A stretch of 64,000 bases of DNA from an uncultured Gammaproteobacteria bacterium (GTDB lineage: Bacteria; Patescibacteriota; Microgenomatia; CAZETR01; Amesbacteraceae): contig CAZFGX010000001.1 of the NCBI GenBank assembly GCA_964518565.1, positions 267,046-331,045 of the forward strand, read 5' to 3'. The position numbers were made by a program, and so were the translations under genes. Below, piece after piece: positions 1-53,085 of the stretch. The stretch's first letter is position 1; each line of letters opens with the position of its first letter. The notes under the pieces were generated by a model that made no database searches, was not told the DNA's origin, and saw nothing but the letters and a program-made list of their open reading frames with translations.

Positions 1-605
1 TCGTTGTGGTTGGTTATAAGCGAAATCGAGGTAAGGGTAGTGCGGTCAGGTTTGGTATGTCAAAAGCGAATGGCTCAATTATTGCTTCCGTAGATGCTGG
101 TGATGATTTAAGTCCGGAAGGTTTGGATATGATGCTCGCCCACTTTTACTGGTATAAAGCAGACATCGTTGTTGGATCAAAACGCCACTCAGCATCAAAA
201 GTTACTTATCCTTGGCAAAGGCGAATAATGTCATTTGGATATCAATGGATAGTTCGGATTCTATTTGGTTTAAAAGTAAGAGATACACAAGTGGGTATGA
301 AAATTTACAAGAAGCAAGTGTTAGATGCTTTATTACCTAGACTATTAGTAAAACAGTATGCATTTGATATTGAAATGCTATCCGTCGCAAACTACCTAGG
401 ATTTAGTCGTATATATGAAGCACCAATAGAATTAAGACTAGATTTTAATAAATCTTCTTCGATAGTCTCGAAAGGATTTTTAAGAACGATTAGTAAAATG
501 CTAAAAGATACTTGCGCTGTATTTTATAGACTTAAAATTACCAAATATTATGACGAAAACAATATGATCAACTGGCACACTGATGTATATCCAGATGAGA
601 TATAA
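1..605 (+). CDS. GT2 family glycosyltransferase (dolichol-phosphate-mannose synthase-like), C-terminal part. The 5' end lies upstream of the window.
   Basis: The ORF runs into the left edge of the window. The DAGDD acidic motif and the downstream Q..V...K.Y pattern are typical of DPM1/ArnC-like GT2 enzymes. Confidence 0.65.
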   Translation, partial: VVVGYKRNRGKGSAVRFGMSKANGSIIASVDAGDDLSPEGLDMMLAHFYWYKADIVVGSKRHSASKVTYPWQRRIMSFGYQWIVRILFGLKVRDTQVGMKIYKKQVLDALLPRLLVKQYAFDIEMLSVANYLGFSRIYEAPIELRLDFNKSSSIVSKGFLRTISKMLKDTCAVFYRLKITKYYDENNMINWHTDVYPDEI

Positions 606-2451
606 AGCGGTTGTTATTTCAATATTTATTATTCTCTTAATAAGAGGATTAGGGAATGTAAGCGCAAATGATGAATACGTATCTATTGTAAATCCAGTAA
701 GAATAGCTCCATATACTAAAAACGTTGAAAACAACATTAAAGCTCAGTATTCAATTCTTAATCGTCTATCGCTGTCAGGAACCTGGCTTGTGACCTACGA
801 TGTTCTATTATCAAAATCAGCCGTATTAGAGTTAAAAAAAATTTCCAAAAATCAAGAATTGGGAATTTTTTTAGAGATTACACCTAAGCTTGCTGCTGAC
901 GCAAATATAAATTATCACAATTTAGGGTCTTGGCATTTTTCAAATAGCATCTTTTTGTCAGGCTATTCGCAGAAAGACAGACAAGAATATGTCGATCTAA
1001 TTTTTAAAGAATTTAAAAGTAAATTTGGTTATTACCCTAAATCAATTGGCTCATGGTGGACGGATTCGTTTTCCCTTGCATATATTAAACAAAAATATCC
1101 AAGTGTAATCGCAAATCTTGTGTGCTCAGATCAGCAGGATACAGATAATTACACAATAAGAGGTCAATATTGGTCAACCCCGTATTATCCTAGTAAATGG
1201 CATGCAGCAACTCCCGCTCAAACATTAGAAAACAAGTTAGACATTGTAAATATACAATGGGCATCCAGAGATCCTGGACATGGATTTGAAAACAGCCGAT
1301 ATAGTACTCAAGACTATTTTACAATAGACAAACTTTCTCAAAACTATTTTGAATATCTAGTTCAAACTTATACACAAAAAAAACAAAATCCATTTAGTCA
1401 TATAGTAGTTGGATTAGAGTCAGATTTTTCACCCGAGGTATACAGTAATCAATTTAAGAAACAAATGGAATATGTATCAAAAATAAAATCCAAAGACAAT
1501 ATAAAAGTAATTACTATGTCTGAATTTTCAAGTTGGTACAGAAAAAAGTTTCCAGATTTATCACCAAAACATGATATTTCGGCCTTAAACTATTTCGACT
1601 CAAAAGAAATACTTCACTGGGTAAACACAAAATACTATCGAGTTGGATATGTTATAAAAAATAGACAAATAAGTATTAGAAGTCTAATTGCATATTCTGA
1701 GAAAAACAGAGAACCATACTTCAGCTCCATTAATACAAATAAAAATCTCGATATCTATATTCCTTCAATAGTAGATGAAGTAAGAAACAAAGAAGAAAAA
1801 TGGACTCTTCCTATTGGTGCTGTATTATTTACCGGAGAAAGTGAAATTGCGATAGCGAATATTTCTGAAAAAGACATACCGAAAGCAATAAGCAATAATA
1901 ATCAAATAAAAATACAAAAGATTTCTACAGGATTTAAAATAGACTTTACTGGTAAATCAATTTATTCAGGAAACGGAAAAATAATTTCTGGGCTCTCAAG
2001 CGAGTCGAAACACTTCTTAAATCAGAAAAAGGCAATATTATTACTTTTAAATCCATCAAATTGGAAAATGTTAAATACGAAGGAATTTGTTGTATCCCAG
2101 GGTGAGATAGAAGCTCTCGAGTATTTAAAAAATAAGCAAAGAGGAAGAATTTTAGTTGAAAATAATGAATGTCTACAATGCGGTTGGTCAACTGGAATTC
2201 AACCTGCTGTTTTTGCAAACAACCGAGGATATATAAATGAAATCACGCATATGAAAGTAATAAAGGACAAAAAAATATTTGATTCAATAAATAGACAAGA
2301 GGCTAAAAAAGAATTAGAAACATTACAAATTAAATATATTTACTTAATTAAAACTGAAAATTATATTGAATCGCTTCCGTTTTCACCTGGAGATTTAGGT
2401 GTACGAAAAATATTTGAAAATGCAAATGCACAGATTTGGGAAAAAGAGTAA
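583..2451 (+). CDS. Hypothetical membrane-anchored or secreted protein with a large extracytoplasmic domain. Function unknown.
   Basis: 622-aa ORF with an N-terminal hydrophobic segment (VVISIFIILLIRGLG), followed by a long hydrophilic Trp/Tyr-rich domain. Its start overlaps the upstream GT2 gene. I recognise no family motif. Confidence 0.45.
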   Translation: MYIQMRYKAVVISIFIILLIRGLGNVSANDEYVSIVNPVRIAPYTKNVENNIKAQYSILNRLSLSGTWLVTYDVLLSKSAVLELKKISKNQELGIFLEITPKLAADANINYHNLGSWHFSNSIFLSGYSQKDRQEYVDLIFKEFKSKFGYYPKSIGSWWTDSFSLAYIKQKYPSVIANLVCSDQQDTDNYTIRGQYWSTPYYPSKWHAATPAQTLENKLDIVNIQWASRDPGHGFENSRYSTQDYFTIDKLSQNYFEYLVQTYTQKKQNPFSHIVVGLESDFSPEVYSNQFKKQMEYVSKIKSKDNIKVITMSEFSSWYRKKFPDLSPKHDISALNYFDSKEILHWVNTKYYRVGYVIKNRQISIRSLIAYSEKNREPYFSSINTNKNLDIYIPSIVDEVRNKEEKWTLPIGAVLFTGESEIAIANISEKDIPKAISNNNQIKIQKISTGFKIDFTGKSIYSGNGKIISGLSSESKHFLNQKKAILLLLNPSNWKMLNTKEFVVSQGEIEALEYLKNKQRGRILVENNECLQCGWSTGIQPAVFANNRGYINEITHMKVIKDKKIFDSINRQEAKKELETLQIKYIYLIKTENYIESLPFSPGDLGVRKIFENANAQIWEKE

Positions 2452-2461
2452 ACTCTTATTT

Positions 2462-3241
2462 ATGAAAAAAATTGCATTAATTACAGGATATTCATCAGAT
2501 ATTGGTCAAGAAGTTGCTGAGCTTTTATCTCAAAAAATTAAGGTCATTGCAACCAGTAGGAAAAAATTAATATGTAAAGAAAAACATAATATAGAAATAA
2601 TTAAATTAGATATAACGAATGAAATAAGTTGCAATAATTTAAAAAAATTTTTAAAAAAAAATAATTATCAAATTGATATATTAATTAACATAGTTGGTCA
2701 CTCAATTAGTGGTCCTTGTGATTTTTACGACTCAAAAACATTCAACAATCTTTTTAATGTTAATGTGTTAGGTGCATTTAGATTAATGCAGTTAGCTATT
2801 CCTGATATGAAATTAAACAATTCAGGCAGAATAATAAATATTGCCTCAATGAATTCATATTTTTTTAATCCTTATTACTCTATATACTGCGCAACTAAAG
2901 CAGCATTGTTAGCATATAGTTACGCCACAAGTGTAGAATTGCAAAAATTTAACATTCATATAACTACAATTCTCCCTGGTGCGTTGAGTTCGAATAAAAA
3001 TAATAAATCCACCATGACTCACAAATCAGCCCGTGAATCATTTTTTTTACTTAAATGGTTTTTACCACTGACTAATCCAAAAAAAATTGCCGAGAAAATT
3101 TTAGAATCTATTATGTCCAGCAAAATAAATCCAATAATAATTGTTGGTAGAGATGCCAAACTGGTATATTTATTGCAACGAATATTGCCAAACAAGATTT
3201 GGTTTAATATCCAAAAAACAATATGGTCTTCTCAAAAATAA
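2462..3241 (+). CDS. Short-chain dehydrogenase/reductase (SDR) family oxidoreductase.
   Basis: N-terminal Rossmann motif ITGYSSDIGQ and catalytic YxxxK motif (YCATKAAL). I moved the start to the internal ATG at 2462 (MKKIALITG), which sits after a gap from the upstream gene. The ORF track starts at 2399. Confidence 0.75.
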   Translation: MKKIALITGYSSDIGQEVAELLSQKIKVIATSRKKLICKEKHNIEIIKLDITNEISCNNLKKFLKKNNYQIDILINIVGHSISGPCDFYDSKTFNNLFNVNVLGAFRLMQLAIPDMKLNNSGRIINIASMNSYFFNPYYSIYCATKAALLAYSYATSVELQKFNIHITTILPGALSSNKNNKSTMTHKSARESFFLLKWFLPLTNPKKIAEKILESIMSSKINPIIIVGRDAKLVYLLQRILPNKIWFNIQKTIWSSQK

Positions 3242-4251
3242 ATCTTCCTACTATATCAGTTGTTATTCCTACATATGACGGTTCACTTGAAACGCTTGAA
3301 GATTGTCTTAAACGTCTACGACAGCAAGATTATCCTCAATCTAAAATCGAAGTAATCTTCGGCCATGGCGGCAAAAAACAAACAATTGAACCTATTGCAA
3401 AAAAATTTAATGCTAAATTTAAATTAATACCCCCAGCAATCCAAAATGCTGAATATAACCGTGGTGTAGCGTTTAATCAAGCCACTAAAGACTTAGTACT
3501 AATATTAGACCATGATAATCTTATGCCCACAAACAACTATTTAAATGAAATTGTTGAGCCTTTTTTAGAAATAAATGATTTGGTAGCAGTTGAAAGTTGT
3601 TATTTCCACTATAGTAAGCAATACTCTCCACTAGATAGATACTACGCCTTAATAGGCACTCTCGATCCTATACCATACTATTTGGGCAAGGCAGACAGAC
3701 TCTCTCAGAGTTCAAATAAATGGAACTTATTGGGATCTTCAATTGATAAAGGTAGGTATTATTTAGTTACATTTGAAAAAGATCCCAGAAAAATACCTAC
3801 TGTGGGAACAAACGGCTGTTTGATGAACAGAAAGTTAGTTTGCAAAAATGCAAACGTTACTCCAGAATTTCATTTCCCCATTGATGTAATGGTTGATGTA
3901 ATCGCCTCCGGACATAATAAATTTGCTTTTGTAAAAAACTCATTAATTCATCTTACTGGGTCACGAGGAGTTATTGAGTTTCTTCGTCGCAGATGGAAGT
4001 TTGTACAGAAATATCATTTCGAAGATGCTGGTAGACGTAGATATAGTGTTTTTATGCCTGGAGATGAGTTACAGCTCATAAAGTTTTCCATTTATAGTAT
4101 TACTCTGGTAAAACCATTGTTGGATAGCATAAAAGGATATCTATTAATAAAAGATTATGCCTGGTTTATACACCCAATCATGTGCTTAGGAATTTTTGTT
4201 ATTTATACGACTGGAACAACTAAAAACTTCATAAAAAGATGGATATTTTAA
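3223..4251 (+). CDS. GT2 family glycosyltransferase.
   Basis: ISVVIPTYDGS start, acidic DHD motif, and C-terminal hydrophobic segments. Overlaps the upstream stop codon. Confidence 0.8.
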   Translation: MVFSKINLPTISVVIPTYDGSLETLEDCLKRLRQQDYPQSKIEVIFGHGGKKQTIEPIAKKFNAKFKLIPPAIQNAEYNRGVAFNQATKDLVLILDHDNLMPTNNYLNEIVEPFLEINDLVAVESCYFHYSKQYSPLDRYYALIGTLDPIPYYLGKADRLSQSSNKWNLLGSSIDKGRYYLVTFEKDPRKIPTVGTNGCLMNRKLVCKNANVTPEFHFPIDVMVDVIASGHNKFAFVKNSLIHLTGSRGVIEFLRRRWKFVQKYHFEDAGRRRYSVFMPGDELQLIKFSIYSITLVKPLLDSIKGYLLIKDYAWFIHPIMCLGIFVIYTTGTTKNFIKRWIF

Positions 4252-5351
4252 TTCTAAATTGGAAAGATATTCATCATCCGCAAGTTGGGGGAGCTGAAAT
4301 TATTGTTTACGAGCTGGCTAAAAGACTAGTAAAAGATGGTCACAAAGTAACATGGTTTTGTAGAAATTTTGTGAATGGTCTAAATATCGAGACTATTGAG
4401 GGGATAAATATAGTAAGAAAGGGAAATTTGTTAACTACATATTTATTTGCACCTTTGTATTATTGGTCGTTAAAGAAAAAACCAGATCTAGTAATCGATA
4501 TCTCTAACACGGTATATTGGCAATCTCCTTTGTGGGCATGGAAATCGAAAAAAATCGCCTATTTAAACCAATTAGCAAAAAATGTTTTTTTCTATGAATA
4601 TCCAGTAATTATTTCCAGAATTGGAATTTTATTTGAGAAATTACAATATCTAAGTTACAAAAAAACAAAATTTATTTGTTATGCTGAAAGTGTTAAAAAT
4701 GACTTAATTTCGATTGGGATACAAAGTAAAAATATATCTGTATTTACCCTAGGATTAGATCACGCACGTTATGTACCAGGGAGAAAATCTGAATCTCCCA
4801 TGCTTATTTGTGTAAATAGGCTAGTCAAAATGAAAAGGACCGATCTGGTAATAAAAGCTGTGGCATATTTAATAAAAAAGGTACCCAATCTTAAATTATT
4901 TATTGTTGGAACGGGATATGAACGAAAAAATCTTCAAATTCTTACAAATAAATTATTACTTGAAAAAAATATCTTTTTTGTAGATGAACACACGTGGTTT
5001 TTTAATAATAATCCTAAAGATAAAAAAGTAAATTTAATGCAACAGGCATGGGCATTAATATTTCCATCAGTAAAAGAAGGATGGGGGATGACGGTCACAG
5101 AATGTGCTGCTTGTGGAACACCCGCCATAGTGACAAACGTATCAGGTCTTGTTGATTCAGTAAAAAACAATTACTCAGGATTAGTTCTTTCTGAACATCC
5201 CTCACCTCTAGAATTATCAGAATCAATATACCAACTAATATCAAACAAGAAAAAACGTTTAGAATTATCCAAAAACGCAATCTCTTGGTCAAAAAAATTT
5301 TCCTGGGAAAAGAGTTATTCACAATTCAAAAAAAATATTTTTAACATATGA
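4239..5351 (+). CDS. GT4 (GT-B fold) glycosyltransferase.
   Basis: N-terminal GGAE motif (HPQVGGAEI) and C-terminal EX7E motif (EGWGMTVTECAACGTPAIV). Confidence 0.8.
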   Translation: MDILILNWKDIHHPQVGGAEIIVYELAKRLVKDGHKVTWFCRNFVNGLNIETIEGINIVRKGNLLTTYLFAPLYYWSLKKKPDLVIDISNTVYWQSPLWAWKSKKIAYLNQLAKNVFFYEYPVIISRIGILFEKLQYLSYKKTKFICYAESVKNDLISIGIQSKNISVFTLGLDHARYVPGRKSESPMLICVNRLVKMKRTDLVIKAVAYLIKKVPNLKLFIVGTGYERKNLQILTNKLLLEKNIFFVDEHTWFFNNNPKDKKVNLMQQAWALIFPSVKEGWGMTVTECAACGTPAIVTNVSGLVDSVKNNYSGLVLSEHPSPLELSESIYQLISNKKKRLELSKNAISWSKKFSWEKSYSQFKKNIFNI

Positions 5352-6439
5352 GAGTATTAATTTTGTCTTGGAGAGGTCCAAGCCATCCCCTAGCTGGAGG
5401 AGCTGAACAGGCTACATGGACACATGCAAAATCGTGGACAAAGGCTGGGCATGACATAACAATTTTCACATCTTCATTCCCCAAGTCAAAAGAAACAGAA
5501 TTAATTGATGGTATTAAAATTCTGAGGAAGGGGGATCAGTATTTTGGGGTAAAAATTCAAGCATTCTTTTGGTATCTAAAACACAGATCTTATTTTGACT
5601 TGGTAGTTGATGAGTTTCACGGCATACCCTTTTTCACTCCTTTATATGTAAAAGTAAAAATATTGGCATTTATCCATGAAACTGGCACGCAAGTATGGGC
5701 ACTGAATTTTTGGCCATTCCCCTTAAATCTTTTACCTAAAATTTTTGGCCCATTGGTAGAAAATAGTACTTTTAAGTTTTTATATAGAAATATTCCCTTT
5801 ATGACGGTTTCAAAATCAACAAAATTAGATTTAATGAAATTTAATATTAATAACATTTCTGTAGTACCAAATGGAGTTACTGGTCCCAAAAAAATAAAGA
5901 AATTAACCAAATCAAAAATTTTTACAATTATATACTTATCAGCATTAGCCCAGGATAAGGGAACAGAAGATGCAATTAAAGCTTTTGAACTCATTCATGA
6001 TCAGATACCTACTATTCAATTTTGGATTGTAGGCAAATCAGAGCCTAAATATTTAGAATATTTAAAATCGCTTTCAAAATTACCAAAATATTTTGGTTAT
6101 GTAAGCGAACAGGAAAAATTTAATTTGTTAAGTCAATCAAGTATATTAATTTTTCCGTCGTTTCATGAAGGTTGGGGTTTAGTAAATATTGAAGCGAATA
6201 TATTTGGAGTTCCAGTAGTTGGCTATAACGTTTCAGGTACTAAAGACTCAGTTATAAATAACAAAACAGGAATATTATGCCCTAAGGGTGATGTCAATGG
6301 ATTGGCAAATTCATGCATAGAATTATATAAAGACAAAAAAAAGTACAATTTTCTAGCTAAAAATGCAAAAAAATGGGCAAATAAATTCAATTGGGAAAAC
6401 TCCACTAAAAAAAGTTTATTGCTTATTCAATCACTATAA
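5348..6439 (+). CDS. GT4 glycosyltransferase.
   Basis: HPLAGGAEQ N-terminal motif and FHEGWGLVNIEANIFGVPVV EX7E motif. ATGA overlap with the upstream gene. Confidence 0.8.
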   Translation: MRVLILSWRGPSHPLAGGAEQATWTHAKSWTKAGHDITIFTSSFPKSKETELIDGIKILRKGDQYFGVKIQAFFWYLKHRSYFDLVVDEFHGIPFFTPLYVKVKILAFIHETGTQVWALNFWPFPLNLLPKIFGPLVENSTFKFLYRNIPFMTVSKSTKLDLMKFNINNISVVPNGVTGPKKIKKLTKSKIFTIIYLSALAQDKGTEDAIKAFELIHDQIPTIQFWIVGKSEPKYLEYLKSLSKLPKYFGYVSEQEKFNLLSQSSILIFPSFHEGWGLVNIEANIFGVPVVGYNVSGTKDSVINNKTGILCPKGDVNGLANSCIELYKDKKKYNFLAKNAKKWANKFNWENSTKKSLLLIQSL

Positions 6440-7443
6440 TGTCTTCAAATGAAAGGTTGCAGGAAAATCGCTCTGTTCAAATTATAGAAAAAAAAGTTAA
6501 TCATGATGGCACAATAGAAATCTTGATTAGTCACGATCAAGCAACTTATCAACTTGTTTGGGAGAATTCATATACTGGTCAAGTATTAAATCCTGACTTG
6601 GATATAGAAGATTTTATAAAAGGTAATAAAAATCCAGAAATCAATCGGAACAAACGAAAACTCTTATTTGGTGTAAATGCAAATGGTAGATGTTCGTTCG
6701 AATGTATCGGATGTTCGTTTGCCAATACCCGAATGAGAAATGTGTATAAAACCGAAAATCAAGAAAGCATGAGACTAGCTAAGCCGGTTAGTCCAGATCT
6801 TCAGCTGAAACTTATGGAAAAAGCCGAAGAACTCGTATTGCATTCAAACATGGAAAACAAATTAAATCTCTATGGTTGCGGAGCTCTACTGTCTGGAGAT
6901 AGTGCTACACATCCGCAATTGGAAGAATTAATACTCACTGTTGCAACAAGAACCAATTGTATATCGTCCCGATGGTCTTCAATTGCTCCTGCTTCAACAA
7001 AGAATGTCTTGGCTAGATTTGCTACAGCAAGTGAAATAATAAAACAAAAAAATGTACAGCATACTGCTAGTTTTCAAATATCTTTACATAGTACAGATCC
7101 TTCTGAAAGGGCACGACATGTAGGAACTAATAAATTGATTGATATGGATACGATAAATTATCAGGCAAAAAATATTTATAGTATTTCACAACGTAAACTA
7201 ACGATAGCTTTTGTTACACATAGAAATAGTGTAATTGAACCTGAAGTTATTGCTAGTTATTTTAATCCAGTTCATACAATGATCTCGTTAAGACCTATGA
7301 TAAACACGAGCTGGGAAATGGAAAAAGAGCGTTTTCTACATCTTTACAGATCAATTAGGGAAAAAGGATTTGATGTGGTGTATATACCTGCAAGTCAAAG
7401 TGGGGCAGAATTAGACAATCTTCGGATGGTAAATCCCCAATAA
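6439..7443 (+). CDS. Radical SAM domain protein. Substrate unknown.
   Basis: Canonical CX3CX2C motif CSFECIGC preceded by NGR, and a downstream Gly-rich segment (LYGCGALLSGDS) resembling the GGEP SAM-binding motif. About 75 aa of unique N-terminal extension. TAATG junction with the upstream GT4 gene. Confidence 0.6.
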   Translation: MSSNERLQENRSVQIIEKKVNHDGTIEILISHDQATYQLVWENSYTGQVLNPDLDIEDFIKGNKNPEINRNKRKLLFGVNANGRCSFECIGCSFANTRMRNVYKTENQESMRLAKPVSPDLQLKLMEKAEELVLHSNMENKLNLYGCGALLSGDSATHPQLEELILTVATRTNCISSRWSSIAPASTKNVLARFATASEIIKQKNVQHTASFQISLHSTDPSERARHVGTNKLIDMDTINYQAKNIYSISQRKLTIAFVTHRNSVIEPEVIASYFNPVHTMISLRPMINTSWEMEKERFLHLYRSIREKGFDVVYIPASQSGAELDNLRMVNPQ

Positions 7444-8205: not shown

Positions 8206-8255
8206 ATTATAATCTATAAAAAACTTTACATATGTTCAAATCGTGATATATAGTA

Positions 8256-45259: not shown

Positions 45260-46452
45260 AAATATTAATGCTAACGCCATATTTGCCTTACCCATTATTG
45301 TCTGGTGGACAAATACGTACATATAATTTACTAAAAAATTTAAGCAAACAGCATCAAATAACCCTTTTCTCGCTAATTAAAGATGAAAAAGAAAAAGCCT
45401 ATCTAAGTGAGTTAAAAAAATTTTGTACAAATATCCAGGTTTTTAAGCGAACAAACTCCCCATGGCATCCCAAAAATATTCTTAGAGCCGGTTTTACTCT
45501 TTACCCATTTTTGGTTACTAGAAATTTAGTAGACGGGACGAAAAAAGCTGTCGAACAAGAGATCGCCAACAATCATTACGACTTAATTCACGCCGAAACT
45601 TTTTATATGATGCCAAATATTCCAAAGACTGAAATACCTGTAATATTGGTCGAACAGACGATTGAATATCTTGGTTATCAAAGTTATGCCTCCAAAAGCA
45701 AACTTTGGCCGATAAGACCGTTGTTGTTGCTCGATATTTTAAAAATAAAATACTGGGAAAAGTATTACTGGCAATCGTGTAATCATTTAATTACCATGAG
45801 CGAAGACGACATGGAATTTATTAAATCAATTGCTCCATCTGTTAAAAATATTGATGTTGTAGCTAATGGAGTGGATACGTCGTGGTTTAATCAAGTTCAA
45901 AAAAAACTTCCAGAAAATCCTACAATTCTTTCAGTGGGAACATTTAAGTGGTTACCAAATTTAGAAGCCGTTGAATTCTTAGTTGAAAAAGTGTGGCCGC
46001 TTGTAAAGAAAAGCTTGCCTAAGGCAAAACTTTGGATCGTGGGTAACGCCCCTACGGCAAAAATTTATGGGTACGAAAAAAAAGATTCATCAATTAAAGT
46101 CACAGGAGGAATACCTGATATTAGAGACGCATATGCAAGCGCACATATCTTGCTTGCACCTGTATTTAGTGGAAAAGGTACCAGATATAAAATACTAGAA
46201 GCATTTGCTACTGGTACACCAGCTGTCGCTACAACAATTGCCGTGGAAGGATTGGGAATAACACCTGGCAAGCATGCTATCGTTGCAAATACTGCAAAAG
46301 ATATGGCGGAATCCGTAGTAAATTTACTAGCAAATAAAAAACAGCAAACTGAATTAGCAAAACAGGGAAAGGAATTTGTTGCTAAAAACTATGATTGGCA
46401 AAATATTTCAGAAAAATTGAACAAAATTTATCTGACAGTTGGCAAAAAATGA
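45256..46452 (+). CDS. GT4 glycosyltransferase.
   Basis: LSGGQIRTYNL N-terminal motif and C-terminal GKGTRYKILEAFATGTPAV motif. Confidence 0.8.
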   Translation: MKILMLTPYLPYPLLSGGQIRTYNLLKNLSKQHQITLFSLIKDEKEKAYLSELKKFCTNIQVFKRTNSPWHPKNILRAGFTLYPFLVTRNLVDGTKKAVEQEIANNHYDLIHAETFYMMPNIPKTEIPVILVEQTIEYLGYQSYASKSKLWPIRPLLLLDILKIKYWEKYYWQSCNHLITMSEDDMEFIKSIAPSVKNIDVVANGVDTSWFNQVQKKLPENPTILSVGTFKWLPNLEAVEFLVEKVWPLVKKSLPKAKLWIVGNAPTAKIYGYEKKDSSIKVTGGIPDIRDAYASAHILLAPVFSGKGTRYKILEAFATGTPAVATTIAVEGLGITPGKHAIVANTAKDMAESVVNLLANKKQQTELAKQGKEFVAKNYDWQNISEKLNKIYLTVGKK

Positions 46453-47282
46453 CCAAAATTTTATCGATAGTAATATTAAGTTTTAACGGAAAAAAAATCT
46501 TATTCGACTGTTTAAGATCTATCCCCAAAAGCCCCAAATGGCAAATATTCGTAGCAGACAACGGTTCAAATGACGGAACATTAGAAATGATCCGTACAAA
46601 TTTTCCAGAAATTATTTTAATAGAAAATAAAAGTAATATCGGATTTGCAGCGGGAAACAACATTGTCTTAAAAAAAATAGAAACCGAATTCGTGCTTTTA
46701 TTAAATCCAGACACAATTGTCTATCCGAACAGTATTGAAACAGTTTTAAAATATATGCAAGAGAATCCTTTAGTTGGTGCCGCTACATGTAGAGTGGAAT
46801 TACCTAGTGGCGAATTAGATTATTCTTGCCATAGGGGATTCCCAGATCCAATAAATTCGTTGCTTCATTTTGTTGGCCTCAAAAAATTCTCGTCATATAC
46901 TGCTCAAAATATCCCTAGTACTGTTCATGAAATCGACTCACTAACTGGTGCGTTCGCCTTAATTAGAACTTCAGTTGGCAAACAGGTAAATTGGCTAGAT
47001 GAAGAATATTTTTGGAACGGCGAAGACATAGATTTTTGTTACAAAGTTAAAGAAAAAGGCTGGAAAATAATGTATTTACCTGATGTCAAAATCACTCACT
47101 TGAAGGGGTATGCGTCAAAAGCCAGTAAAGATAGACGGCTCGCGTGGGCAAAAAATTCTACTGAGGTTATGCGACTTTTTTATAAAAAGCATTTAGCGAA
47201 AAAATACCCAATTATTGTTAACATTGCTGTATATATTGGTATTTATGCGCTAAAAATAATTAGAACTGCGAAAAATATATGA
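46449..47282 (+). CDS. GT2 family glycosyltransferase.
   Basis: LSIVILSFNG, FVADNGSNDGT and LNPDT (DXD) motifs. Start at the ATG at 46449 (ATGA overlap). Confidence 0.8.
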   Translation: MTKILSIVILSFNGKKILFDCLRSIPKSPKWQIFVADNGSNDGTLEMIRTNFPEIILIENKSNIGFAAGNNIVLKKIETEFVLLLNPDTIVYPNSIETVLKYMQENPLVGAATCRVELPSGELDYSCHRGFPDPINSLLHFVGLKKFSSYTAQNIPSTVHEIDSLTGAFALIRTSVGKQVNWLDEEYFWNGEDIDFCYKVKEKGWKIMYLPDVKITHLKGYASKASKDRRLAWAKNSTEVMRLFYKKHLAKKYPIIVNIAVYIGIYALKIIRTAKNI

Positions 47283-48312
47283 AAACAATTTGTATAGATG
47301 CTAGATTCTTTGGAGTAAAACACACAGGAATAGGTCGCTATGTAGAAGAATTAATCAAAAACCTACCTACTTCAGAATCTATGCAAGTAGTTTTAATAAT
47401 AAATGAGTCAGATAAAAATAATCCAATACTAAAAAAATTTAAAGTTCATTTTGCTAATAGACACCCATACTCAGTTGCATCCCAAATAGAAATGACACGA
47501 TTGTTGTACAAGATTCACCCCGATTTGTTACATGTACCTCATTTTACAATTCCAATCCTATGGTTCGGAAAAACTATTGTTACAATTCATGATTTGATTA
47601 AACACATCTCAGTTGGAACATCAACGACTACATTAAATCCAATTGTATATATACTGAAACTTTTTGGATATCGATTTATTGTTTGGCTATCAATTAGCCG
47701 CGCTTATAAAATTATTACACCAACACTTTACTGGAAAAAAGAACTACAAAACTACTACCAAATAAACGAAAAAAAAATAGTTGTTACATATGAAGGAGTG
47801 ACCCAGTTATGACATCATTTCTTGTTTACACTGGAAATTTGTATCCTCATAAAAATGTTAATATCGCAATTGAGGCGGCTGAAAAGTTAGAAATTCCAAT
47901 TAAAATTATTTGTGCAAGATCCATTTTCCAAAATCGTTTAAAAAAATCAAAGTATGTAGAATTTTTAAATAACGTCTCCGATTCTCAAATAAAAACTTTA
48001 TACCAAAAAGCTATTGCGTTTATATTTCCTTCTCGTATTGAAGGCTTTGGACTCCCGGGCTTGGAAGCTATGTCCGTAGGCTTGCCTGTGATTGCAGCAA
48101 ATAGCTCATGTTTACCAGAAGTTTACGGCCAATCAGCATTATTTTTCGATCCAGACGATGTACAAGATTTAATAAAAAAAATTTCGTTGATTATGAATGA
48201 TAGTAGTCTGCGCAAAGACATGATTGAAAAAGGGTATAGACAAGCAAAAAAATACTCGTGGGCTAAAATGGCACAACAAACATGGGAAATATACCAAAAC
48301 GCATTGCAATAA
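47279..48312 (+). pseudogene. GT4 glycosyltransferase disrupted by a -1 frameshift near 47798-47800. The two halves correspond to track ORFs 47279..47812 and 47809..48312.
   Basis: The first ORF encodes only a GT4 N-terminal domain and ends ...VVTYEGVTQL*. The second encodes only the C-terminal domain (LYPHKNV...EGFGLPGLEAMSVGLPVIA). Inserting a single G (GGAGTG-G-ACCCAG) restores ...YEGVDPVMTSFLVYTGNLYPHKN..., a canonical continuous GT4 protein. Confidence 0.6.
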
Positions 48313-49391
48313 TTTATGATCGTGTAAATAAATGGGGAGGAGCGGAACAAGTGTTGTTGGCCTTGCAAGAATTATTCCCTACCGCTGAACTTTTTACATC
48401 TGTTTATGATGCAAAATCAGCTTCCTGGTCAAAAGTATTTTCAAAAATTCATACATCCTTTTTACAGAAAATACCCTTTTTAATACACCATCACGAGTTG
48501 TTTCCTTGGTTAATGCCACTTGCGTTTGAGTCGCATGATTTAAAGAATTTTGATGTAATTATTTCCGTAACATCAGCCGAATGTAAAGGCGTACAAACAC
48601 TGCCTGGACAGCTACATTTGTGTTACTGTCTAACCCCTACGAGATATTTGTGGAGCCATGAAAAATTTTATATGAATACTCAATCTATGTTTAAAAAATT
48701 TTTATCAATTCCTTTACTACGTTATTTAAAAAAATGGGAACAGGTAAGTAAATATCGGCCAGATACATACATTGCAATTTCTAATGTGGTGAAACAAAGA
48801 ATTGCAACATATTACAACCAGGATGCAGAAATAGTCTATCCGCCTGTGGAAACAAAAAGAAAATTCACCGCTCAAAAAGGCGAATATTTTGTATGGATTG
48901 GCCGACTGGTTGCTTATAAACATCCAGAAAAAGTCATAAAGCTATTTAACAAGATAAACCTACCATTAGTAATTGTTGGTGATGGGTCAGAAAAAAGGAA
49001 ACTGCAAAAAATAGCTAAAAAAAACATCCAATTTGTAGGATTTGTAGATGATAAAACACTTAGACAAACCTTAGTAAATTCGCTAGCCTTTATTTCTATG
49101 CACGAAGAAGATTTTGGAATTTCGTATGTAGAAGCACAGGCTGCAGGTAAACCTATATTAGGTCTAAAAGTAGGTGCAGTAGCTGAAATTATTATTTCAA
49201 ATAAAACCGGAACATTATTTAAAACAGAAGAAGAACTGAAAGATGGAATTTTAAATTTTAGACCTGAGAAATTCTCCAGCAGTGAGTGTATCAAGAATGC
49301 CCAAAGGTTTTCCAAGGAGCGTTTTTTAAAAAATTTTGCTAAAGTATATACAAAAGCATGGAAAAAATATCGAACCACGTATATGTATTAA
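48282..49391 (+). CDS. GT4 glycosyltransferase.
   Basis: WGGAEQV N-terminal motif and EDFGISYVEAQAAGKPILG EX7E motif. Confidence 0.7.
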   Translation: MGNIPKRIAIIYDRVNKWGGAEQVLLALQELFPTAELFTSVYDAKSASWSKVFSKIHTSFLQKIPFLIHHHELFPWLMPLAFESHDLKNFDVIISVTSAECKGVQTLPGQLHLCYCLTPTRYLWSHEKFYMNTQSMFKKFLSIPLLRYLKKWEQVSKYRPDTYIAISNVVKQRIATYYNQDAEIVYPPVETKRKFTAQKGEYFVWIGRLVAYKHPEKVIKLFNKINLPLVIVGDGSEKRKLQKIAKKNIQFVGFVDDKTLRQTLVNSLAFISMHEEDFGISYVEAQAAGKPILGLKVGAVAEIIISNKTGTLFKTEEELKDGILNFRPEKFSSSECIKNAQRFSKERFLKNFAKVYTKAWKKYRTTYMY

Positions 49392-50455
49392 TACTCGCGG
49401 GGGGAGGCGGAACCCGTCTTTGGCCAAAATCCCGAGATGCAAACCCCAAACAATTTCTTAAGCTTTTTGAAGGCAAGTCGTTGTTTGAATTAACACTTGA
49501 GCGAGCCCTAAAACTAACTGAAGCCAAAAATATATTTATTAGCACGAATGAAAAATATAGAGCTGAAGTAAAAAAACAATGTGGTCAGATACCTCTGGAA
49601 AATATAATCGCAGAACCTATACGACGAGACACGGCTCTTGCCCACGGAGTTGGTGCAGCATATATCTATCGTAAAGATCCTGAGGCAATTATCTGTAACT
49701 TCGCTTCAGACCATATAATTTCTCCTCTGTCTGTTTTTGTGAAACAATTTAACAAAGTCATAAAGCTGGCAGGCGAAAGAAATGAGGTTGTTACCGTCGG
49801 TATTCCACCAAAATTTCCTCACACGGGAATGGGGCATATCCGAGCACGTAAACCCGTAAATTCTGACGATGAGGAAGTATTGTGGGGTGAGAAATTTGTA
49901 GAAAAGCCTCCTCTTGAAATTGCAGAAAAATATACAGAAAGTGGGGAATACTATTGGAATGCTAATTTGTATACTTACAAAGCTAAATTATTCCTAGATT
50001 TATTGAAAATTCATGCACCTAAGACATATGTCCTACTACCAAAATTAATCGAGGCAATCGGCACAGAAAAGGAAAACGAAATACTGCAACAAACATTTCA
50101 GATGGCTCCTTCAATCTCCATCGACTATGCTGTTGCTGAAAATCTAAAAAGATTCGTATGTATACCTGCCAAATTTGATTGGTCAGATGTTGGCGATTGG
50201 TCTGAAATGTGGAAACAGCTTTCAAAAGACGCACAGGGCAACGTCGTTTTGGGAACAAAATCGAAATATATAAATTTTGAATCTGAAAACAATATGATTA
50301 TTTTAGATAAAAAACTCATTGCAACGAGTAACATAAAAAACATGATTATCATTGATACACCAGATGCATTATTGATTTGTTCTAAAAAAGATTCACAATC
50401 GGTTAAAAAAATTGTAGAACTTCTGAAAGAAAAAGAAATGAAAAACTTTTTATAA
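49358..50455 (+). CDS. Mannose-1-phosphate guanylyltransferase (ManC/GMP family, no isomerase domain).
   Basis: VLILAGGGGTRLWPKSR signature and downstream motifs characteristic of GDP-mannose pyrophosphorylases. Confidence 0.7.
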   Translation: MEKISNHVYVLILAGGGGTRLWPKSRDANPKQFLKLFEGKSLFELTLERALKLTEAKNIFISTNEKYRAEVKKQCGQIPLENIIAEPIRRDTALAHGVGAAYIYRKDPEAIICNFASDHIISPLSVFVKQFNKVIKLAGERNEVVTVGIPPKFPHTGMGHIRARKPVNSDDEEVLWGEKFVEKPPLEIAEKYTESGEYYWNANLYTYKAKLFLDLLKIHAPKTYVLLPKLIEAIGTEKENEILQQTFQMAPSISIDYAVAENLKRFVCIPAKFDWSDVGDWSEMWKQLSKDAQGNVVLGTKSKYINFESENNMIILDKKLIATSNIKNMIIIDTPDALLICSKKDSQSVKKIVELLKEKEMKNFL

Positions 50456-51106
50456 TTGTGCATGAACTACGAAATCCTCAAACGAATCATTGATATAGGT
50501 TTAGGAACATGTTTTATTATTTTCTTTCTTCCGATATGTATCATGGTCGCTATCGCAATAAAACTAGAATCACCGAACGGCCCGGTATTTGCAGATACGC
50601 CGCCGCGCGTAGGTAAAAACGGTAAATTGTTTTACACATATAAATTTAGATCGATGATTCCCAATGCTTATGAACTTCTTAAAACTGATCCAAGATTTAA
50701 AAAAGCCTATGAAGAACAGCAAAAAGGTGGAAACTATAAAATCATGCACGACCCAAGAGTGACAAAAGTAGGCAGATTTATTCGAAAGTATTCACTTGAT
50801 GAGGTGCCCCAATTTATAAATATTGTAAAAGGCGAAATGAGTCTTGTTGGCCCTAGGCCTTATTACGCTGAAGAATTAGAGAAACAGCAACAAAACTATC
50901 CAGATACAAAAGAATTGGTCAAAGAGACATTATCTATTAGACCTGGACTAACAGGAATTTGGCAAGTTTCTGGTCGAAGTAATGTAAATTTTGAGAAAAG
51001 AATCCAGCTTGATGCTCAATATGCTCGTACATTGTCATTGTGGTATGATTTAATTATTCTGGCAAAAACCCCGTTCGCCATGATCTCCGCCAAAGGTGCA
51101 GTATGA
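50456..51106 (+). CDS. Initiating phosphoglycosyltransferase (bacterial sugar transferase, PglC/WbaP C-terminal domain type).
   Basis: Single N-terminal TM helix followed by PNGPVF...YKFRSM...DEVPQFINIVKGEMSLVGPRP, the hallmark of polyprenyl-phosphate hexose-1-phosphate transferases. Confidence 0.8.
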   Translation: MCMNYEILKRIIDIGLGTCFIIFFLPICIMVAIAIKLESPNGPVFADTPPRVGKNGKLFYTYKFRSMIPNAYELLKTDPRFKKAYEEQQKGGNYKIMHDPRVTKVGRFIRKYSLDEVPQFINIVKGEMSLVGPRPYYAEELEKQQQNYPDTKELVKETLSIRPGLTGIWQVSGRSNVNFEKRIQLDAQYARTLSLWYDLIILAKTPFAMISAKGAV

Positions 51107-53085
51107 AAAATCAATCAAACATAGTTAGATCATTTGACAGCGATCTGTCAGAAACTAGCAATAATATAAATACAAATAATAGCCGTGCAATGGGTAAATT
51201 TTTATTAAAACTATCACTAATAACATTAAGTGTAATCGTAGTATTAGCTCTCATAGGTTATATGGTAGTAGTTCGTCCAGGCCGAGTTCTTATGGCCTCG
51301 GTAAGAGAATTGGAAGCTAATACTAAAGCAGTGGCGCCGTATGCTAAAACACAAGATCTTGGAGGAGTCAAAAACCAGTTAGAAAAGGTAAAGGGTTCAC
51401 TCACAAACGTCGAGACAAATCTGCATACCTTTAAGTGGTCGTCACACATTCCATTCGCAAAAAATTATTACAATGATGGCCAATCGGGTATTTCAGCTGG
51501 ATATGAATTAATAGCGGCAGCAGAGATTGGGATCGATGCCATTGCACCTTATGCCGATGTAATTGGCTTAAAGGGTTTGGCCACTTCAGGAGATGGAGGT
51601 AAGACAGCTCAGGATCGAATCACATTTATAGTAAATACCTTAGACAAAATTCATCCACAACTCGATAAAATTGGCGAAAAACTTAGCAATGCCCAAAAGT
51701 TTTTAGCCAATATTGATCCAAATAGATATCCTGAAGAAATAAAAGGTATAAAAATTAGATCACAACTTGCTAGTGGGCTTGAAACAATCGATCAAGCATC
51801 TACTGTCATAAATGATGCTAAACCAATTTTAGAATCAGCGCCATATCTGTTGGGTAACCAGTCACCAAGAAAATATTTGGTACTATTCCAAAACGATGCA
51901 GAAATAAGAGGCACCGGAGGCTTCCTAACAGGATATGCAATTATTAATGTAACCAACGGAAAAGTTCAATCACTAGAGTCAGATGACATTTACAAATTAG
52001 ACGAAAAATTTACGAAGCGAATACCAGCTCCTGAGCCTATACTCAAATATTTACCACTAGTCCCTTATTGGTATTTGCGAGATCAAAACCTGTCTCCTGA
52101 TTTCAAGTCGTCAATGGAAACATTTATGAGTAATTATAAATTGACAAAATCTCCTGAAGTAGACGGAGTCATTGCTGTAGATACACAGCTACTTGTAGAT
52201 TTATTAAAAGTAACAGGTCCAATTGGAGTCTCAGGACTTGGAACATTTACTGCAGACCAGGATCCAAGGTGTAATTGTCCTCAAGTGTTTTACGAGCTTC
52301 AAGTGCTGGCTGGCGGCGAAGAGCCTGTGGTGTGGGACTCAGTTTCTGGAAAAATCGTCAAGGCTCCTGCAAATTATGGAAATCGTAAAGCTTTTCTTGG
52401 ACCGCTGATGTATTCCGTCTTGGCAAACGTTATGGCGCAACCGAAAAGCAAGTTCCCTCTTTTGTTCAACACAGCTATGGCCAATATTCAAGGTAAGCAT
52501 ATCATGGCATATTTTAATGACCCAAAAGCACAAATGGCTGTAGAAAGCTTTAATATGGCGGGTCGAGTACGTGAATCCGACTCAGATTATTTGCTTATTG
52601 TCGATACGAATTTTGCAGGGGCAAAAACAAACATCTGGGTGAATTACAAAGTTGACCAAAAAGTTGATATTGACTCGAGTGGAAATATTACCAAAACAGT
52701 TACGCTTACCTATGCCAACCCTCAACAAACTGCGGTAAAAATTACTCAAGCAAGAAACCTAAATGGCGCATTTCGGGATTGGCTCAGAGTCTATGTACCC
52801 AAGGGAAGTCAGCTAATTGAAGCAAAAGGTTTCGAATCTGGACAAACAACTAGTGAAGATCTAGGTAAAACAGTATTTGATGGCTTTTTCACTTTAACTC
52901 CTGGTAACACTCGTCAAATTTCCTTCAAATATAAGCTCCCGACCAAAGCCCAAAATAACACATATAAAATACTCATACAAAAACAGGGCGGAATTAAAAC
53001 ATTTCCCTATACCATGACTATAAATGGAAAATCAAAACTTGAGACACTTGTAGATCAAGACAAAGAACTATCGTATCCATACTAA
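51103..53085 (+). CDS. Membrane-anchored protein, DUF4012-like. Function unknown.
   Basis: 660 aa with one N-terminal TM helix and a long coiled region. It carries a conserved-looking NDAEIRGTGGFLTGYAI motif, which I associate with the DUF4012 family found beside sugar transferases. That family assignment is from memory. Confidence 0.45.
   Translation: MKNQSNIVRSFDSDLSETSNNINTNNSRAMGKFLLKLSLITLSVIVVLALIGYMVVVRPGRVLMASVRELEANTKAVAPYAKTQDLGGVKNQLEKVKGSLTNVETNLHTFKWSSHIPFAKNYYNDGQSGISAGYELIAAAEIGIDAIAPYADVIGLKGLATSGDGGKTAQDRITFIVNTLDKIHPQLDKIGEKLSNAQKFLANIDPNRYPEEIKGIKIRSQLASGLETIDQASTVINDAKPILESAPYLLGNQSPRKYLVLFQNDAEIRGTGGFLTGYAIINVTNGKVQSLESDDIYKLDEKFTKRIPAPEPILKYLPLVPYWYLRDQNLSPDFKSSMETFMSNYKLTKSPEVDGVIAVDTQLLVDLLKVTGPIGVSGLGTFTADQDPRCNCPQVFYELQVLAGGEEPVVWDSVSGKIVKAPANYGNRKAFLGPLMYSVLANVMAQPKSKFPLLFNTAMANIQGKHIMAYFNDPKAQMAVESFNMAGRVRESDSDYLLIVDTNFAGAKTNIWVNYKVDQKVDIDSSGNITKTVTLTYANPQQTAVKITQARNLNGAFRDWLRVYVPKGSQLIEAKGFESGQTTSEDLGKTVFDGFFTLTPGNTRQISFKYKLPTKAQNNTYKILIQKQGGIKTFPYTMTINGKSKLETLVDQDKELSYPY

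Follow-up and report, generated by a model that had tools for sequence, protein, structure and literature searches.

Gene content of the locus

The subject of this analysis is a large glycan-biosynthesis locus in a 64,000-nucleotide stretch of DNA (the window; contig CAZFGX010000001.1 of assembly GCA_964518565.1, positions 267,046 to 331,045). We searched all 58 non-nested open reading frames (ORFs) of at least 100 aa in the window with Pfam profiles and covered the sequence upstream of the window to position -9405. The ORFs are densely packed and nearly all lie on the plus strand, with three strand switches at 7411, 10052 and 16870 (genes are named here by their first coordinate). The locus spans at least positions -9405 to 53085, which amounts to at least 62.5 kb and ~55 genes, ~34 of them for glycosyl transfer; this size is a lower bound, as the left end lies still further out. 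A first-pass annotation made from the sequence alone had placed the locus at 583-53085 (~53 kb). Its right end stands, since RecO and other non-glycan genes come next, while its left coordinate is no boundary: at least 9.4 kb more lie upstream, and the window holds the right-hand ~53 kb. The same annotation had supposed an organism of the candidate phyla radiation (CPR) type that devotes an unusually large share of its coding capacity to this locus. Both points agree with what we found, as homologues of lineage-specific proteins are named Amesbacteria, Woesebacteria, Daviesbacteria and Microgenomates group, and the locus takes up at least 6.2% of the 1,001,365-bp contig (a genome of ~1 Mb).

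Cytoplasmic-type glycosyltransferases of families 2 and 4 (GT2 and GT4) are spread along the whole locus. The nine GT2 and at least eleven GT4 genes of the first-pass annotation were recovered by Pfam as nine GT2 ORFs (PF00535, 37.6-108 bits against a gathering cutoff of 23.3) and eleven GT4 genes (PF00534/PF13692/PF13439), ten of them intact and one split over two ORFs. In the lines below, "core" marks members of a compact gene set that recurs in relatives, GCA_038055335.1 is a related genome described further on, and TM stands for transmembrane.

6-605, plus: GT2, 5' end cut by the window edge, 260 aa when complete (PF00535)
3223-4251, plus: GT2 (PF00535, 47.8 bits)
4239-5351, plus: GT4 (PF00534, 124 bits), 64% identical to its GCA_038055335.1 counterpart
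5348-6439, plus: GT4 (PF00534, 109 bits)
7411-8205, minus: GT2, candidate of the polyprenyl-phosphate-sugar synthase type, DPM1/AglJ/PpgS-like (PF00535)
11771-12601, plus: GT2 (PF00535, 108 bits), hydrophobic C-terminal helix by hydropathy
12598-13713, plus: GT4 (PF00534, 107 bits)
15711-16859, plus: GT4 (PF13692/PF00534)
16870-17874, minus: GT2 (PF00535, 75.6 bits), two C-terminal TM helices by hydropathy
20797-21948, plus: GT4 (PF00534, 88.8 bits)
21938-22963, plus: GT2 (PF00535, 91 bits)
34072-35001, plus: GT2 (PF00535, 39 bits)
34998-35990, plus: GT4 (PF00534, 110 bits)
35927-36685, plus: GT2 (PF00535, 80.7 bits), C-terminal helix
39351-40382, plus: GT4 (PF00534, 81 bits)
40384-41490, plus: GT4, core across Microgenomates (PF00534, 130 bits)
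45256-46452, plus: GT4, core (PF13692, 82 bits)
46395-47282, plus: GT2, core (PF13641, 79 bits; PF00535)
47279-47812, plus: N-terminal Rossmann domain of a GT4 as its own ORF (PF13439 only)
47809-48312, plus: C-terminal domain of a GT4 as its own ORF (PF00534, 98 bits)
48282-49391, plus: GT4 (PF00534, 88.7 bits)
Upstream of the window, -9405 to -174: one GT2 and one GT4 gene

Among the window GT2s, 7411 alone resembles AglJ/PpgS-type enzymes, and weakly so: its best NCBIfam matches (AglJ, PpgS, Dol-P-hexose transferase and PgfS) score 27-47 bits, far under the equivalog cutoffs. Its homologue in GCA_038055335.1 (56% identity) adjoins a GtrA_DPMS_TM gene. By family resemblance, 7411 is therefore a candidate maker of a lipid-phosphate-sugar donor. 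We also considered the GT2s with C-terminal helices (11771, 16870, 21938, 35927 and 46395) as polyprenyl-phosphate-sugar synthases paired with an adjacent membrane transferase. The searches do not support this pairing: NCBIfam and the PDB group them with generic GT2s (EpsD, TuaG, WcaA, TarS-like); for 16870, the PDB and NCBIfam matches were generic GT2s only. In the split GT4, the break falls exactly between the two Rossmann domains, and the two ORFs lie in different frames with a 4-nt ATGA overlap. An independent assembly (the Logan contig described below) shows this split as well. The pair may work as a split enzyme or may be a pseudogene created by a frameshift.

The locus also encodes initiation, export, sugar supply and tailoring functions, which are listed here together with the genes that have no clear assignment.

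50456-51106, plus: small monotopic phosphoglycosyltransferase (PGT) of the PglC/WbaP catalytic-domain type, 216 aa (PF02397, 198 bits)
32939-34198, plus: Wzx-type flippase of the multidrug/oligosaccharidyl-lipid/polysaccharide (MOP) superfamily (PF01943, 70.9 bits; PF13440)
42525-43829, plus: Wzy_C-domain protein, ~11 TM helices, core (PF04932, 46.8 bits, cutoff 31.7)
49358-50455, plus: ManC-like mannose-1-phosphate guanylyltransferase without a phosphomannose isomerase domain (PF00483, PF22640; TIGR01479, 283 bits)
9292-10071, plus: sugar-1-phosphate nucleotidylyltransferase, RmlA-long/GalU/archaeal GlmU N-domain-like (PF00483)
8256-9302, plus: nucleoside diphosphate (NDP)-hexose 4,6-dehydratase-like short-chain dehydrogenase/reductase (SDR) (PF01370/PF16363; TIGR01181, 149 bits, under cutoff)
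13655-14695, plus: NAD-dependent epimerase/reductase, 3-beta-hydroxysteroid dehydrogenase (3-beta-HSD)/HpnA-like (PF01370, PF01073; NCBIfam)
14732-15718, plus: GDP-fucose-synthase-like 4-keto-6-deoxyhexose epimerase/reductase (PF01370, 159 bits; NF047922, 151 bits, under cutoff)
2399-3241, plus: SDR (PF00106, 121 bits; NCBIfam generic SDR families only)
19973-20800, plus: S-adenosylmethionine (SAM)-dependent methyltransferase (PF08241 and related models)
22960-23646, plus: SAM-dependent methyltransferase (PF13489, 85 bits)
31021-31686, plus: SAM-dependent methyltransferase (PF08242 and related models), 54-60% identity at the matching position in relatives
41460-42050, plus: WcaF-like hexapeptide O-acetyltransferase, core (PF00132; NF007797, 82 bits), 47-69% identity in relatives
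31683-32954, plus: FAD-dependent oxidoreductase, amine-oxidase fold (PF01593; NF005560, 398 bits, cutoff 252)
6439-7443, plus: divergent radical-SAM-like protein of a rare family (motifs, transitive homology)
583-2451 (gene-caller start 595), plus: N-terminally anchored extracytoplasmic protein, one TM helix by hydropathy
42050-42538, plus: 162-aa membrane protein, two hydrophobic segments, no family match
51103-53085, plus: membrane-anchored DUF4012 protein, 660 aa, one N-terminal TM helix, last gene of the locus (PF13196, 95 bits)

These profile matches agree with the first-pass annotation, which had named a Wzx-like flippase, a Wzy/WaaL-like protein, a PglC-type initiating transferase, three epimerase/dehydratases (8256, 13655, 14732), an SDR, two nucleotidyltransferases (9292, 49358), three methyltransferases, an acetyltransferase and an FAD oxidoreductase. 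For the initiating transferase, TIGR03025 matches with 246 bits over the catalytic domain alone; since the WbaP/exopolysaccharide (EPS)-type match is confined to that domain, we take 50456 to be the small PglC-like form. The Wzy_C domain of 42525 is compatible with a polymerase, a ligase or the O-oligosaccharyltransferase family. At the family level, the sugar genes suggest a local supply of mannose and a 6-deoxyhexose. Homologues of the FAD oxidoreductase 31683 (54-55% identity) stand at the matching position in related loci L010/L011. For the protein at 583, the closest matches were DUF3863 (20 bits, under cutoff) and PDB 3lm3 (E 0.002). PDB sequence searches with 6439, 583, 51103 and 31683 returned nothing informative. 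As a speculation, the DUF4012 protein might fill the role of a Wzz-type polysaccharide co-polymerase (PCP) or a LytR-CpsA-Psr (LCP) protein, both of which are missing from the window.

The radical SAM enzyme of the first-pass annotation is a more qualified case. The protein at 6439 itself has no Pfam or NCBIfam match even at E<=5, and a PDB profile search gave YydG and HydG only, both non-significant. On the other hand, the residues C85/C89/C92 (CxxxCxxC) and the SGD(P) and QxSxHST motifs are invariant in 17 family members, and 8 of these 17 match PF04055 (best E 2.4e-6). The assignment of 6439 as a divergent radical-SAM-like protein is thus supported only indirectly, through its relatives. 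The family is small, with 25 representatives among 1.84 billion proteins. As a separate observation, residues 10-50 of 6439 (~40 residues) match a unit that is repeated 9-12 times in two giant proteins of the representative library (P0178, 3145 aa; P0183, 2862 aa).

Polytopic GT-C enzymes

Besides the flippase and the Wzy_C protein, hydropathy identified eight polytopic proteins in the window, and the upstream stretch adds five more (368, 518, 519, 532 and 536 aa). The first-pass annotation had expected six to eight polytopic glycosyltransferases of the GT-C fold. Pfam, profile-profile comparison or AlphaFold2 modelling followed by Foldseek support this fold for seven of the eight window proteins, with 38041 matching weakly.

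10052-11746, minus: GT-C fold, Patescibacteria-specific family without a Pfam model (AlphaFold2 and Foldseek)
17901-19982, plus: AftD-like GT-C, ~10 TM helices (PF11847 GT-C_AftD, 29.4 bits, cutoff 26)
23622-25538, plus: AftD-like GT-C paralogue (BLASTP to 25520, E 2e-28; to 28541, E 9e-6)
25520-28402, plus: AftD-like GT-C paralogue with an N-terminal extension of ~250 aa and ~14 hydrophobic segments (BLASTP to 23622)
28365-28535, plus: two-TM micro-protein, 56 aa; its ORF begins within the 3' end of 25520 and ends 6 nt short of 28541
28541-31069, plus: AftD-like GT-C with an extracytoplasmic beta-sandwich region like a carbohydrate-binding module (CBM) and a C-terminal TM helix (AlphaFold2 and Foldseek)
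36622-38037, plus: PMT_2-superfamily GT-C (hhalign; no direct Pfam match)
38041-39312, plus: polytopic membrane protein, candidate GT-C (GT87, 18.5 bits, under cutoff; hhalign 47% to the PMT_2-like family)
43775-45259, plus: PMT_2 GT-C, core (PF13231, 48.9 bits; PF02366)
Upstream of the window: 519-aa polytopic protein, the most upstream, running off the available DNA (-9405 to -174 stretch)
Upstream of the window: three paralogous PMT_2-like GT-C genes, 518, 532 and 536 aa, 31-34% mutually identical
Upstream of the window: 368-aa protein, 8 TM helices, no Pfam family

Four of these proteins form an AftD-like group. The proteins at 23622, 25520 and 28541 have no Pfam family match and are distant paralogues of one another and of 17901, which matches the AftD family directly; since they are paralogous to this group, 23622 and 25520 are counted as GT-C enzymes. 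An alignment of the paralogues revealed a common GGDD-type motif after the first helix. For 28541, an AlphaFold2 model built from an alignment of 48 homologues (pLDDT 89.3, pTM 0.88) has mycobacterial AftD as its best PDB match in Foldseek (6w98, E 5.8e-11, probability 1.0, TMq 0.53), at a sequence identity of ~9%; after AftD, the soluble part matches CBM and beta-sandwich structures. The model consists of a helical membrane domain from residue 1 to ~380, beta-rich domains at 386-798 (CBM6/GH2 beta-sandwich) and a TM helix at 801-841. NCBIfam gives an MmpA match of 37 bits. The family comprises ~50 Patescibacteria proteins and has an invariant D6 within an HD.PY motif. For 25520, a word search of 5.8 billion proteins found just 2 homologues.

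A short gene precedes 28541. In 13 related loci (L004, L006/L021, L011-L013, L017, L018, L022-L026), a two-TM ORF of 52-58 aa lies at the matching position 5' of the AftD-like GT-C, and the window copy is 31% identical to that of L004. In this genome and its closest relatives, the AftD-like GT-C begins at the invariant HD.PY, without the first TM helix. Since the enzyme lacks this helix, the micro-protein at 28365-28535 may be a subunit of the AftD-like GT-C. In many of these loci, the two-TM ORF is accompanied by a further one (95-115 aa, 3-4 TM helices) that the window lacks.

The remaining GT-C enzymes resemble oligosaccharyltransferases or the PMT_2 superfamily. The AlphaFold2 model of 10052 (54 homologues, pLDDT 93.1, pTM 0.93) matched GT-C enzymes in all of its top 20 Foldseek hits against the PDB (STT3/PglB, ArnT, DPY19, ALG12, ALG6; probability 1.0), with the oligosaccharyltransferases STT3/PglB as the closest folds. 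The family has an invariant GDD at 29-31 directly after TM1, and its invariant residues include no WWD/WWDYG-type motif. By hhalign, the 36622 family matches the upstream PMT_2-like family at 98.9% (E 1.7e-17) and the 43775 family at 96.9%, compared to less than 1.3% against everything for the Wzx family, which served as negative control; 36622 also carries an LWLDEGAQ motif after TM1. The upstream trio shares a W/A-DE motif, and the 536-aa member alone passes the Pfam cutoff, the other two scoring 25.0 and 20.8 bits. A scan of GTDB representative genome contigs with the 532-aa protein gave no match, which means that the species itself is absent from that set. The 519-aa protein reaches 49% in hhalign against the AftD-like family and 18.8 bits for PMT_2.

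Altogether, the locus holds ten supported GT-C genes, made up of four AftD-like and six PMT_2- or oligosaccharyltransferase (OST)-like enzymes, together with three weaker candidates (38041 and the upstream 519-aa and 368-aa proteins). The acidic motifs after TM1 or in the first loop, namely GDD in 10052, GGDD in the AftD-like group, D6 in 28541, LDE in 36622 and W/A-DE in the upstream trio, fit the motif conserved among GT-C enzymes and may be catalytic.

Integrity and conservation of the locus

The window proteins are also found on an independent 130,693-bp Logan contig from SRR16481187. The two assemblies are 100% identical and collinear over all compared parts (window 1-14251 and 41103-63085), and the two ends of the locus lie on this single contig 47,880 bp apart, as they do in the window. 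A chimeric assembly, which the first-pass annotation had raised as a concern, is therefore excluded. The locus has a GC content of 0.322 compared to 0.361 in the flank that follows it; a minimum of 0.27-0.30 at 22000-32000 covers the genes of the very hydrophobic AftD-like proteins. All paralogues within the locus are less than 35% identical, so there are no recent duplications. Each of the ten window proteins tested, among them FtsW, the penicillin-binding protein (PBP) and RsmH, is a singleton at 90% identity among 15 billion proteins, which places the organism in a lineage without close sequenced relatives. An Rfam scan of the window found no RNA family, and a tRNA scan of the window found none.

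The 3' neighbours of the locus are RecO, a class II aminoacyl-tRNA synthetase and the division and cell wall (dcw) cluster (MraZ, RsmH, FtsI-type PBP, diacylglycerol kinase, MraY, FtsW and MurG). Since the locus adjoins this peptidoglycan cluster, the organism has a wall. Within the dcw cluster (56875-63525, plus strand), a prokaryotic diacylglycerol kinase gene at 60094-60447 lies between the FtsI-type PBP and MraY genes, and a 94-aa ORF at 58123-58407 occupies the position expected for FtsL.

Comparison with related genomes, which the first-pass annotation had proposed, revealed a locus kept across species. GCA_038055335.1 (a Patescibacteria group bacterium from Hainich groundwater, 111-kb contig) has the same locus over at least 46 kb, with counterparts of 3223 to 41460 in matching order at 25-79% identity. 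A 14.9-kb metagenomic contig (L004) repeats the window order from 23622 to 36622 at 33-60% identity and holds one of the two detectable 25520 homologues. GCA_038055335.1 also has genes that are absent from the window: the GtrA_DPMS_TM gene (L008 14440-14796, minus strand), additional methyltransferases and heptose-pathway-type genes (SIS, and a GHMP kinase-nucleotidyltransferase fusion). Methyltransferases stand there in place of the FAD gene 31683. These differences indicate a common scaffold that varies by lineage.

A profile scan with the 28541 family, run with 12 closer sequences over one genome per GTDB species, found 39 loci. Where titles are informative, they name Amesbacteria, Woesebacteria, Gottesmanbacteria, Levybacteria, Shapirobacteria, the Microgenomates group or unclassified "Patescibacteria group" metagenome-assembled genomes (MAGs); one of the 39 loci is in a Saccharimonadales MAG. 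Close lineages have the expanded arrangement and distant ones the compact core only, which consists of the AftD-like GT-C, GT4 (40384), acetyltransferase (41460), GT2 (46395), Wzy_C (42525), PMT_2 (43775) and GT4 (45256) genes. This core recurs in Gottesman-, Levy-, Woese- and Amesbacteria MAGs, and the homologue of GT4 40384 adjoins the AftD-like gene in more than 20 loci. By this comparison, the window holds an enlarged form of an ancestral envelope-glycan locus common to the class, and not a mobile island. The conservation of gene order and of the compact core among relatives argues for a housekeeping envelope polymer. The first-pass annotation had called the locus an island, and these data do not bear out a strain-specific one.

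In distant Microgenomates (L032, L033, L035, L038, L041, L043 and L045), the core Wzy_C protein is ~1000 aa long, with a C-terminal extension of ~500 aa that has no match in the window; these proteins are not fusions with the PMT_2 gene. Many Microgenomates-type MAG records (e.g., L010, L013, L016, L017 and L021) are titled "uncultured Gammaproteobacteria bacterium", which appears to be a placeholder or a mislabel.

A probable envelope glycopolymer and its alternatives

We consider it fairly probable that these genes form a vertically conserved locus for a complex cell-envelope glycopolymer of the Wzx/Wzy type, which is primed by a PglC-like enzyme, O-methylated and O-acetylated, and elaborated outside the membrane by 10-13 GT-C enzymes. 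It is probably the locus for the main surface glycan of these bacteria. As far as gene families can tell, the combination of Wzx, Wzy_C, a PGT and AftD-like enzymes with carbohydrate-binding-type domains favours a polysaccharide over protein glycosylation. In the pathway that we propose, ManC would supply GDP-mannose, and the nucleotidylyltransferase, the 4,6-dehydratase-like enzyme and the Fcl-like epimerase/reductase would supply an NDP-6-deoxyhexose. The PglC-type enzyme 50456 would prime polyprenyl phosphate, and ~20 GT2/GT4 enzymes would lengthen the lipid-linked oligosaccharide. Tailoring may involve the three methyltransferases, the acetyltransferase, the FAD oxidoreductase, the SDR and the radical-SAM-like enzyme. 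Wzx would then flip the unit and the Wzy_C protein polymerise or ligate it. In parallel, 7411 may make a polyprenyl-monophosphate sugar, with a GtrA-type partner where one is present. From such lipid-linked donors, the GT-C battery would branch or extend the polymer outside the membrane, where the AftD-like enzymes may grip the acceptor glycan through their CBM-like beta-sandwich domains. By analogy, the logic would be that of a Wzx/Wzy pathway joined to multi-component transmembrane glycosylation and scaled towards mycobacterial arabinogalactan and lipoarabinomannan (AG/LAM).

Typical Wzx/Wzy loci for O-antigen, capsule or EPS are 10-30 kb long, and this locus, with at least 62.5 kb and ~34 glycosyl-transfer genes, is several times larger. 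It resembles them in its clustered, co-oriented genes for a PGT, a MOP flippase, a Wzy_C protein, GT2/GT4 enzymes, nucleotide sugars and a WcaF-like acetyltransferase. Such loci are hypervariable among strains, whereas this one is kept across a class, and the window has no gene for Wza (Pfam scan), Wzz/PCP or LCP. Mycobacterial AG/LAM synthesis (AftA-D, EmbA-C) likewise employs a set of large GT-C enzymes that carry extracytoplasmic domains of the carbohydrate-binding type and end in TM helices, and relies heavily on polymer construction outside the cytoplasm, and the AftD matches of 28541 (6w98) and 17901 (PF11847) point the same way. However, mycobacterial AftD has ~1,300-1,400 aa compared to 638-960 aa for the proteins of this locus, at the ~9% identity given above, and the CPR enzyme is preceded by a conserved two-TM micro-protein gene. 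The window also lacks the decaprenyl-phosphate-arabinose genes (UbiA, DprE1/2) of AG synthesis and has a Wzx/Wzy_C/PGT module, which that pathway does not use.

The three-component systems of Gram-positive bacteria (CsbB/GtcA/YfhO, GacI/GacK/GacL, lactococcal Csd, and WpsA-WpsB of the rhamnose-rich cell wall polysaccharide and polysaccharide pellicle, Rha-CWPS/PSP) share with this locus a GT2 of the polyprenyl-phosphate-sugar synthase type (here the candidate 7411), a GtrA-family partner (here in the syntenic relative only, not in the window) and, in some cases, a Wzx-type flippase. Their GT-C enzymes carry PMT_2, YfhO or no Pfam domain and have AftD, ArnT, STT3 and PglB as structural neighbours (PMC8035078), and the PMT_2, YfhO/AftD-like and no-Pfam enzymes found here have the same neighbours. 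The lactococcal PSP is built on undecaprenyl phosphate (C55-P) and attached outside the cell (PMC10821137). These systems use one GT-A and one GT-C enzyme to add a single sugar and belong to Firmicutes, whereas this locus has 10-13 GT-C candidates for one candidate lipid-phosphate-sugar synthase and lies in a CPR bacterium of ~1 Mb. The protein glycosylation loci of Campylobacter (pgl; PglB/PglC) and Neisseria (pgl; PglL) also combine a small PGT, a flippase, a Wzy_C protein and a PglB/STT3-like GT-C. Unlike these, the present locus has no WWDYG-type motif in the 10052 family, no UDP-diNAcBac genes and far more transferases than a short glycan needs.

It is possible, if somewhat doubtful, that two or more independent glycan pathways lie side by side in a super-locus, for example a PGT/Wzx/Wzy heteropolysaccharide (~32.9-53 kb) beside a lipoglycan or wall polymer built by AftD-like and PMT_2 enzymes (upstream to ~31 kb). 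The data agree with this arrangement, which partly coincides with the pathway proposed above. It would account for the two initiating kinds (the PGT 50456 and the synthase-like 7411) and the three strand switches, and the left part would be an add-on, since distant relatives hold only the compact core (28541 plus 40384-46395). On the other hand, there is a single Wzx and a single Wzy_C protein in the window, an AftD-like gene is itself in the compact core beside Wzy_C and PMT_2, and the order across both halves is kept as one block in GCA_038055335.1. As the main rival to the pathway proposed above, though an unlikely one, we consider that the locus serves mainly general protein glycosylation (S-layer, pilins or other surface proteins), with an oligosaccharide built by GT2/GT4 enzymes, flipped by Wzx and transferred en bloc by a PglL/PilO-type Wzy_C protein and/or 10052, and with O-mannosylation by PMT_2 enzymes. 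The STT3/PglB matches of 10052 and the PMT/PMT_2 matches of 43775 and the upstream trio would fit such a role, as would the Wzy_C domain of 42525, which PglL/PilO O-oligosaccharyltransferases have as well. Pilin glycosylation in Patescibacteria is also suspected, though unexplored (bioRxiv 10.1101/2024.11.25.624915). However, the 10052 family has no WWD-type motif among its invariant residues, the four AftD-like enzymes have CBM-like beta-sandwich regions of a kind typical for glycan acceptors, and the Pfam scan of the window turned up neither a pilin nor an S-layer gene. The ~34 glycosyl-transfer genes also far exceed the needs of any protein glycosylation locus known to us. Moreover, PMT_2 proteins are the usual wall-polymer GT-C enzymes in Gram-positive bacteria (PMC8035078).

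Two further explanations have much less in their favour. A mycobacterial-type arabinan, made by AftD-like enzymes from polyprenyl-phospho-arabinofuranose that a DprE1/DprE2-like pair of FAD oxidase and SDR would supply, is very improbable. In its favour, 28541 matches AftD best by structure, 17901 falls into the AftD family of Pfam, and the window encodes both an FAD oxidoreductase (31683) and an SDR (2399), but there is no UbiA-type phosphoribosyltransferase, phosphatase or DprE1-type family among the window ORFs. In addition, 31683 has the amine-oxidase fold (PF01593, NF005560) and not the FAD_binding_4 domain of DprE1, methyltransferases take its place in GCA_038055335.1, and the identity to AftD is low. 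We rejected this decaprenyl-phosphate-arabinose (DPA) pathway on the lack of UbiA and DprE1 in the window. The idea of an assembly chimera, or of a recently acquired, strain-variable capsule-type island, is contradicted by the data and hardly credible. The lower GC content of the locus and its dip at 22-32 kb would speak for it, but the dip falls on genes of very hydrophobic proteins, the Logan assembly is identical and collinear, and the paralogues have diverged to less than 35% identity. The synteny is with a different species, at 25-79% amino-acid identity, and the core extends across Microgenomates.

Several observations weigh against a single exported envelope glycopolymer, which we nevertheless prefer. 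Only one candidate polyprenyl-phosphate-sugar synthase is present for 10-13 GT-C enzymes. The Pfam scan of the window found no GtrA-type flippase gene, no Wzz/PCP (PF02706) and no LCP-type ligase for attachment to peptidoglycan (PF03816), so that no recognised gene accounts for export control and anchoring. Among the members of the Wzy_C family are also O-antigen ligases and O-oligosaccharyltransferases that act on proteins. Because 10052 is OST-like and PMT-type enzymes can glycosylate proteins, some of the genes may have protein targets, and with initiating enzymes of two kinds the locus may yield more than one product.

The enzyme classes encoded here are all known, and the locus as a whole ranks as a polysaccharide biosynthesis cluster. 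What is unusual is how large the locus is for such a genome, how many GT-C enzymes (10-13) it brings together, the conservation across Microgenomates and the presence of lineage-specific families without a profile model (the AftD-like 28541/25520/23622, the GT-C 10052 and the radical-SAM-like 6439). No account of this type of locus in Patescibacteria or Microgenomates came up in full-text literature searches. Several protein families that no Pfam or NCBIfam model covers can now be assigned to the GT-C glycosyltransferases. As targets for further work, the locus offers the 10052 family and the AftD-like family, the micro-protein that goes with the latter, the candidate synthase 7411 and the cryptic radical SAM enzyme. 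To our knowledge, the composition of the cell envelope in CPR bacteria (Patescibacteria) is essentially unknown. With over 6% of a 1 Mb genome and ~34 glycosyl-transfer enzymes, 10-13 of them GT-C, committed to one conserved locus, the surface glycan stands out as a major investment. More tentatively, and with considerable doubt, Microgenomates may build their principal wall glycopolymer largely outside the membrane, with at least 10 GT-C enzymes that depend on polyprenyl-phosphate sugars, a lineage-specific AftD-like family with a conserved two-TM micro-protein subunit and a hitherto unrecognised radical-SAM enzyme for sugar tailoring, as an independently evolved counterpart of AG/LAM in a ~1 Mb genome that forms the main surface towards hosts and phages. 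CPR bacteria are believed to live as attached partners of other cells and to suffer heavy predation by phages. If this more tentative reading is true, a methylated, acetylated and branched glycan would be the main surface that these episymbionts present to their hosts and phages.

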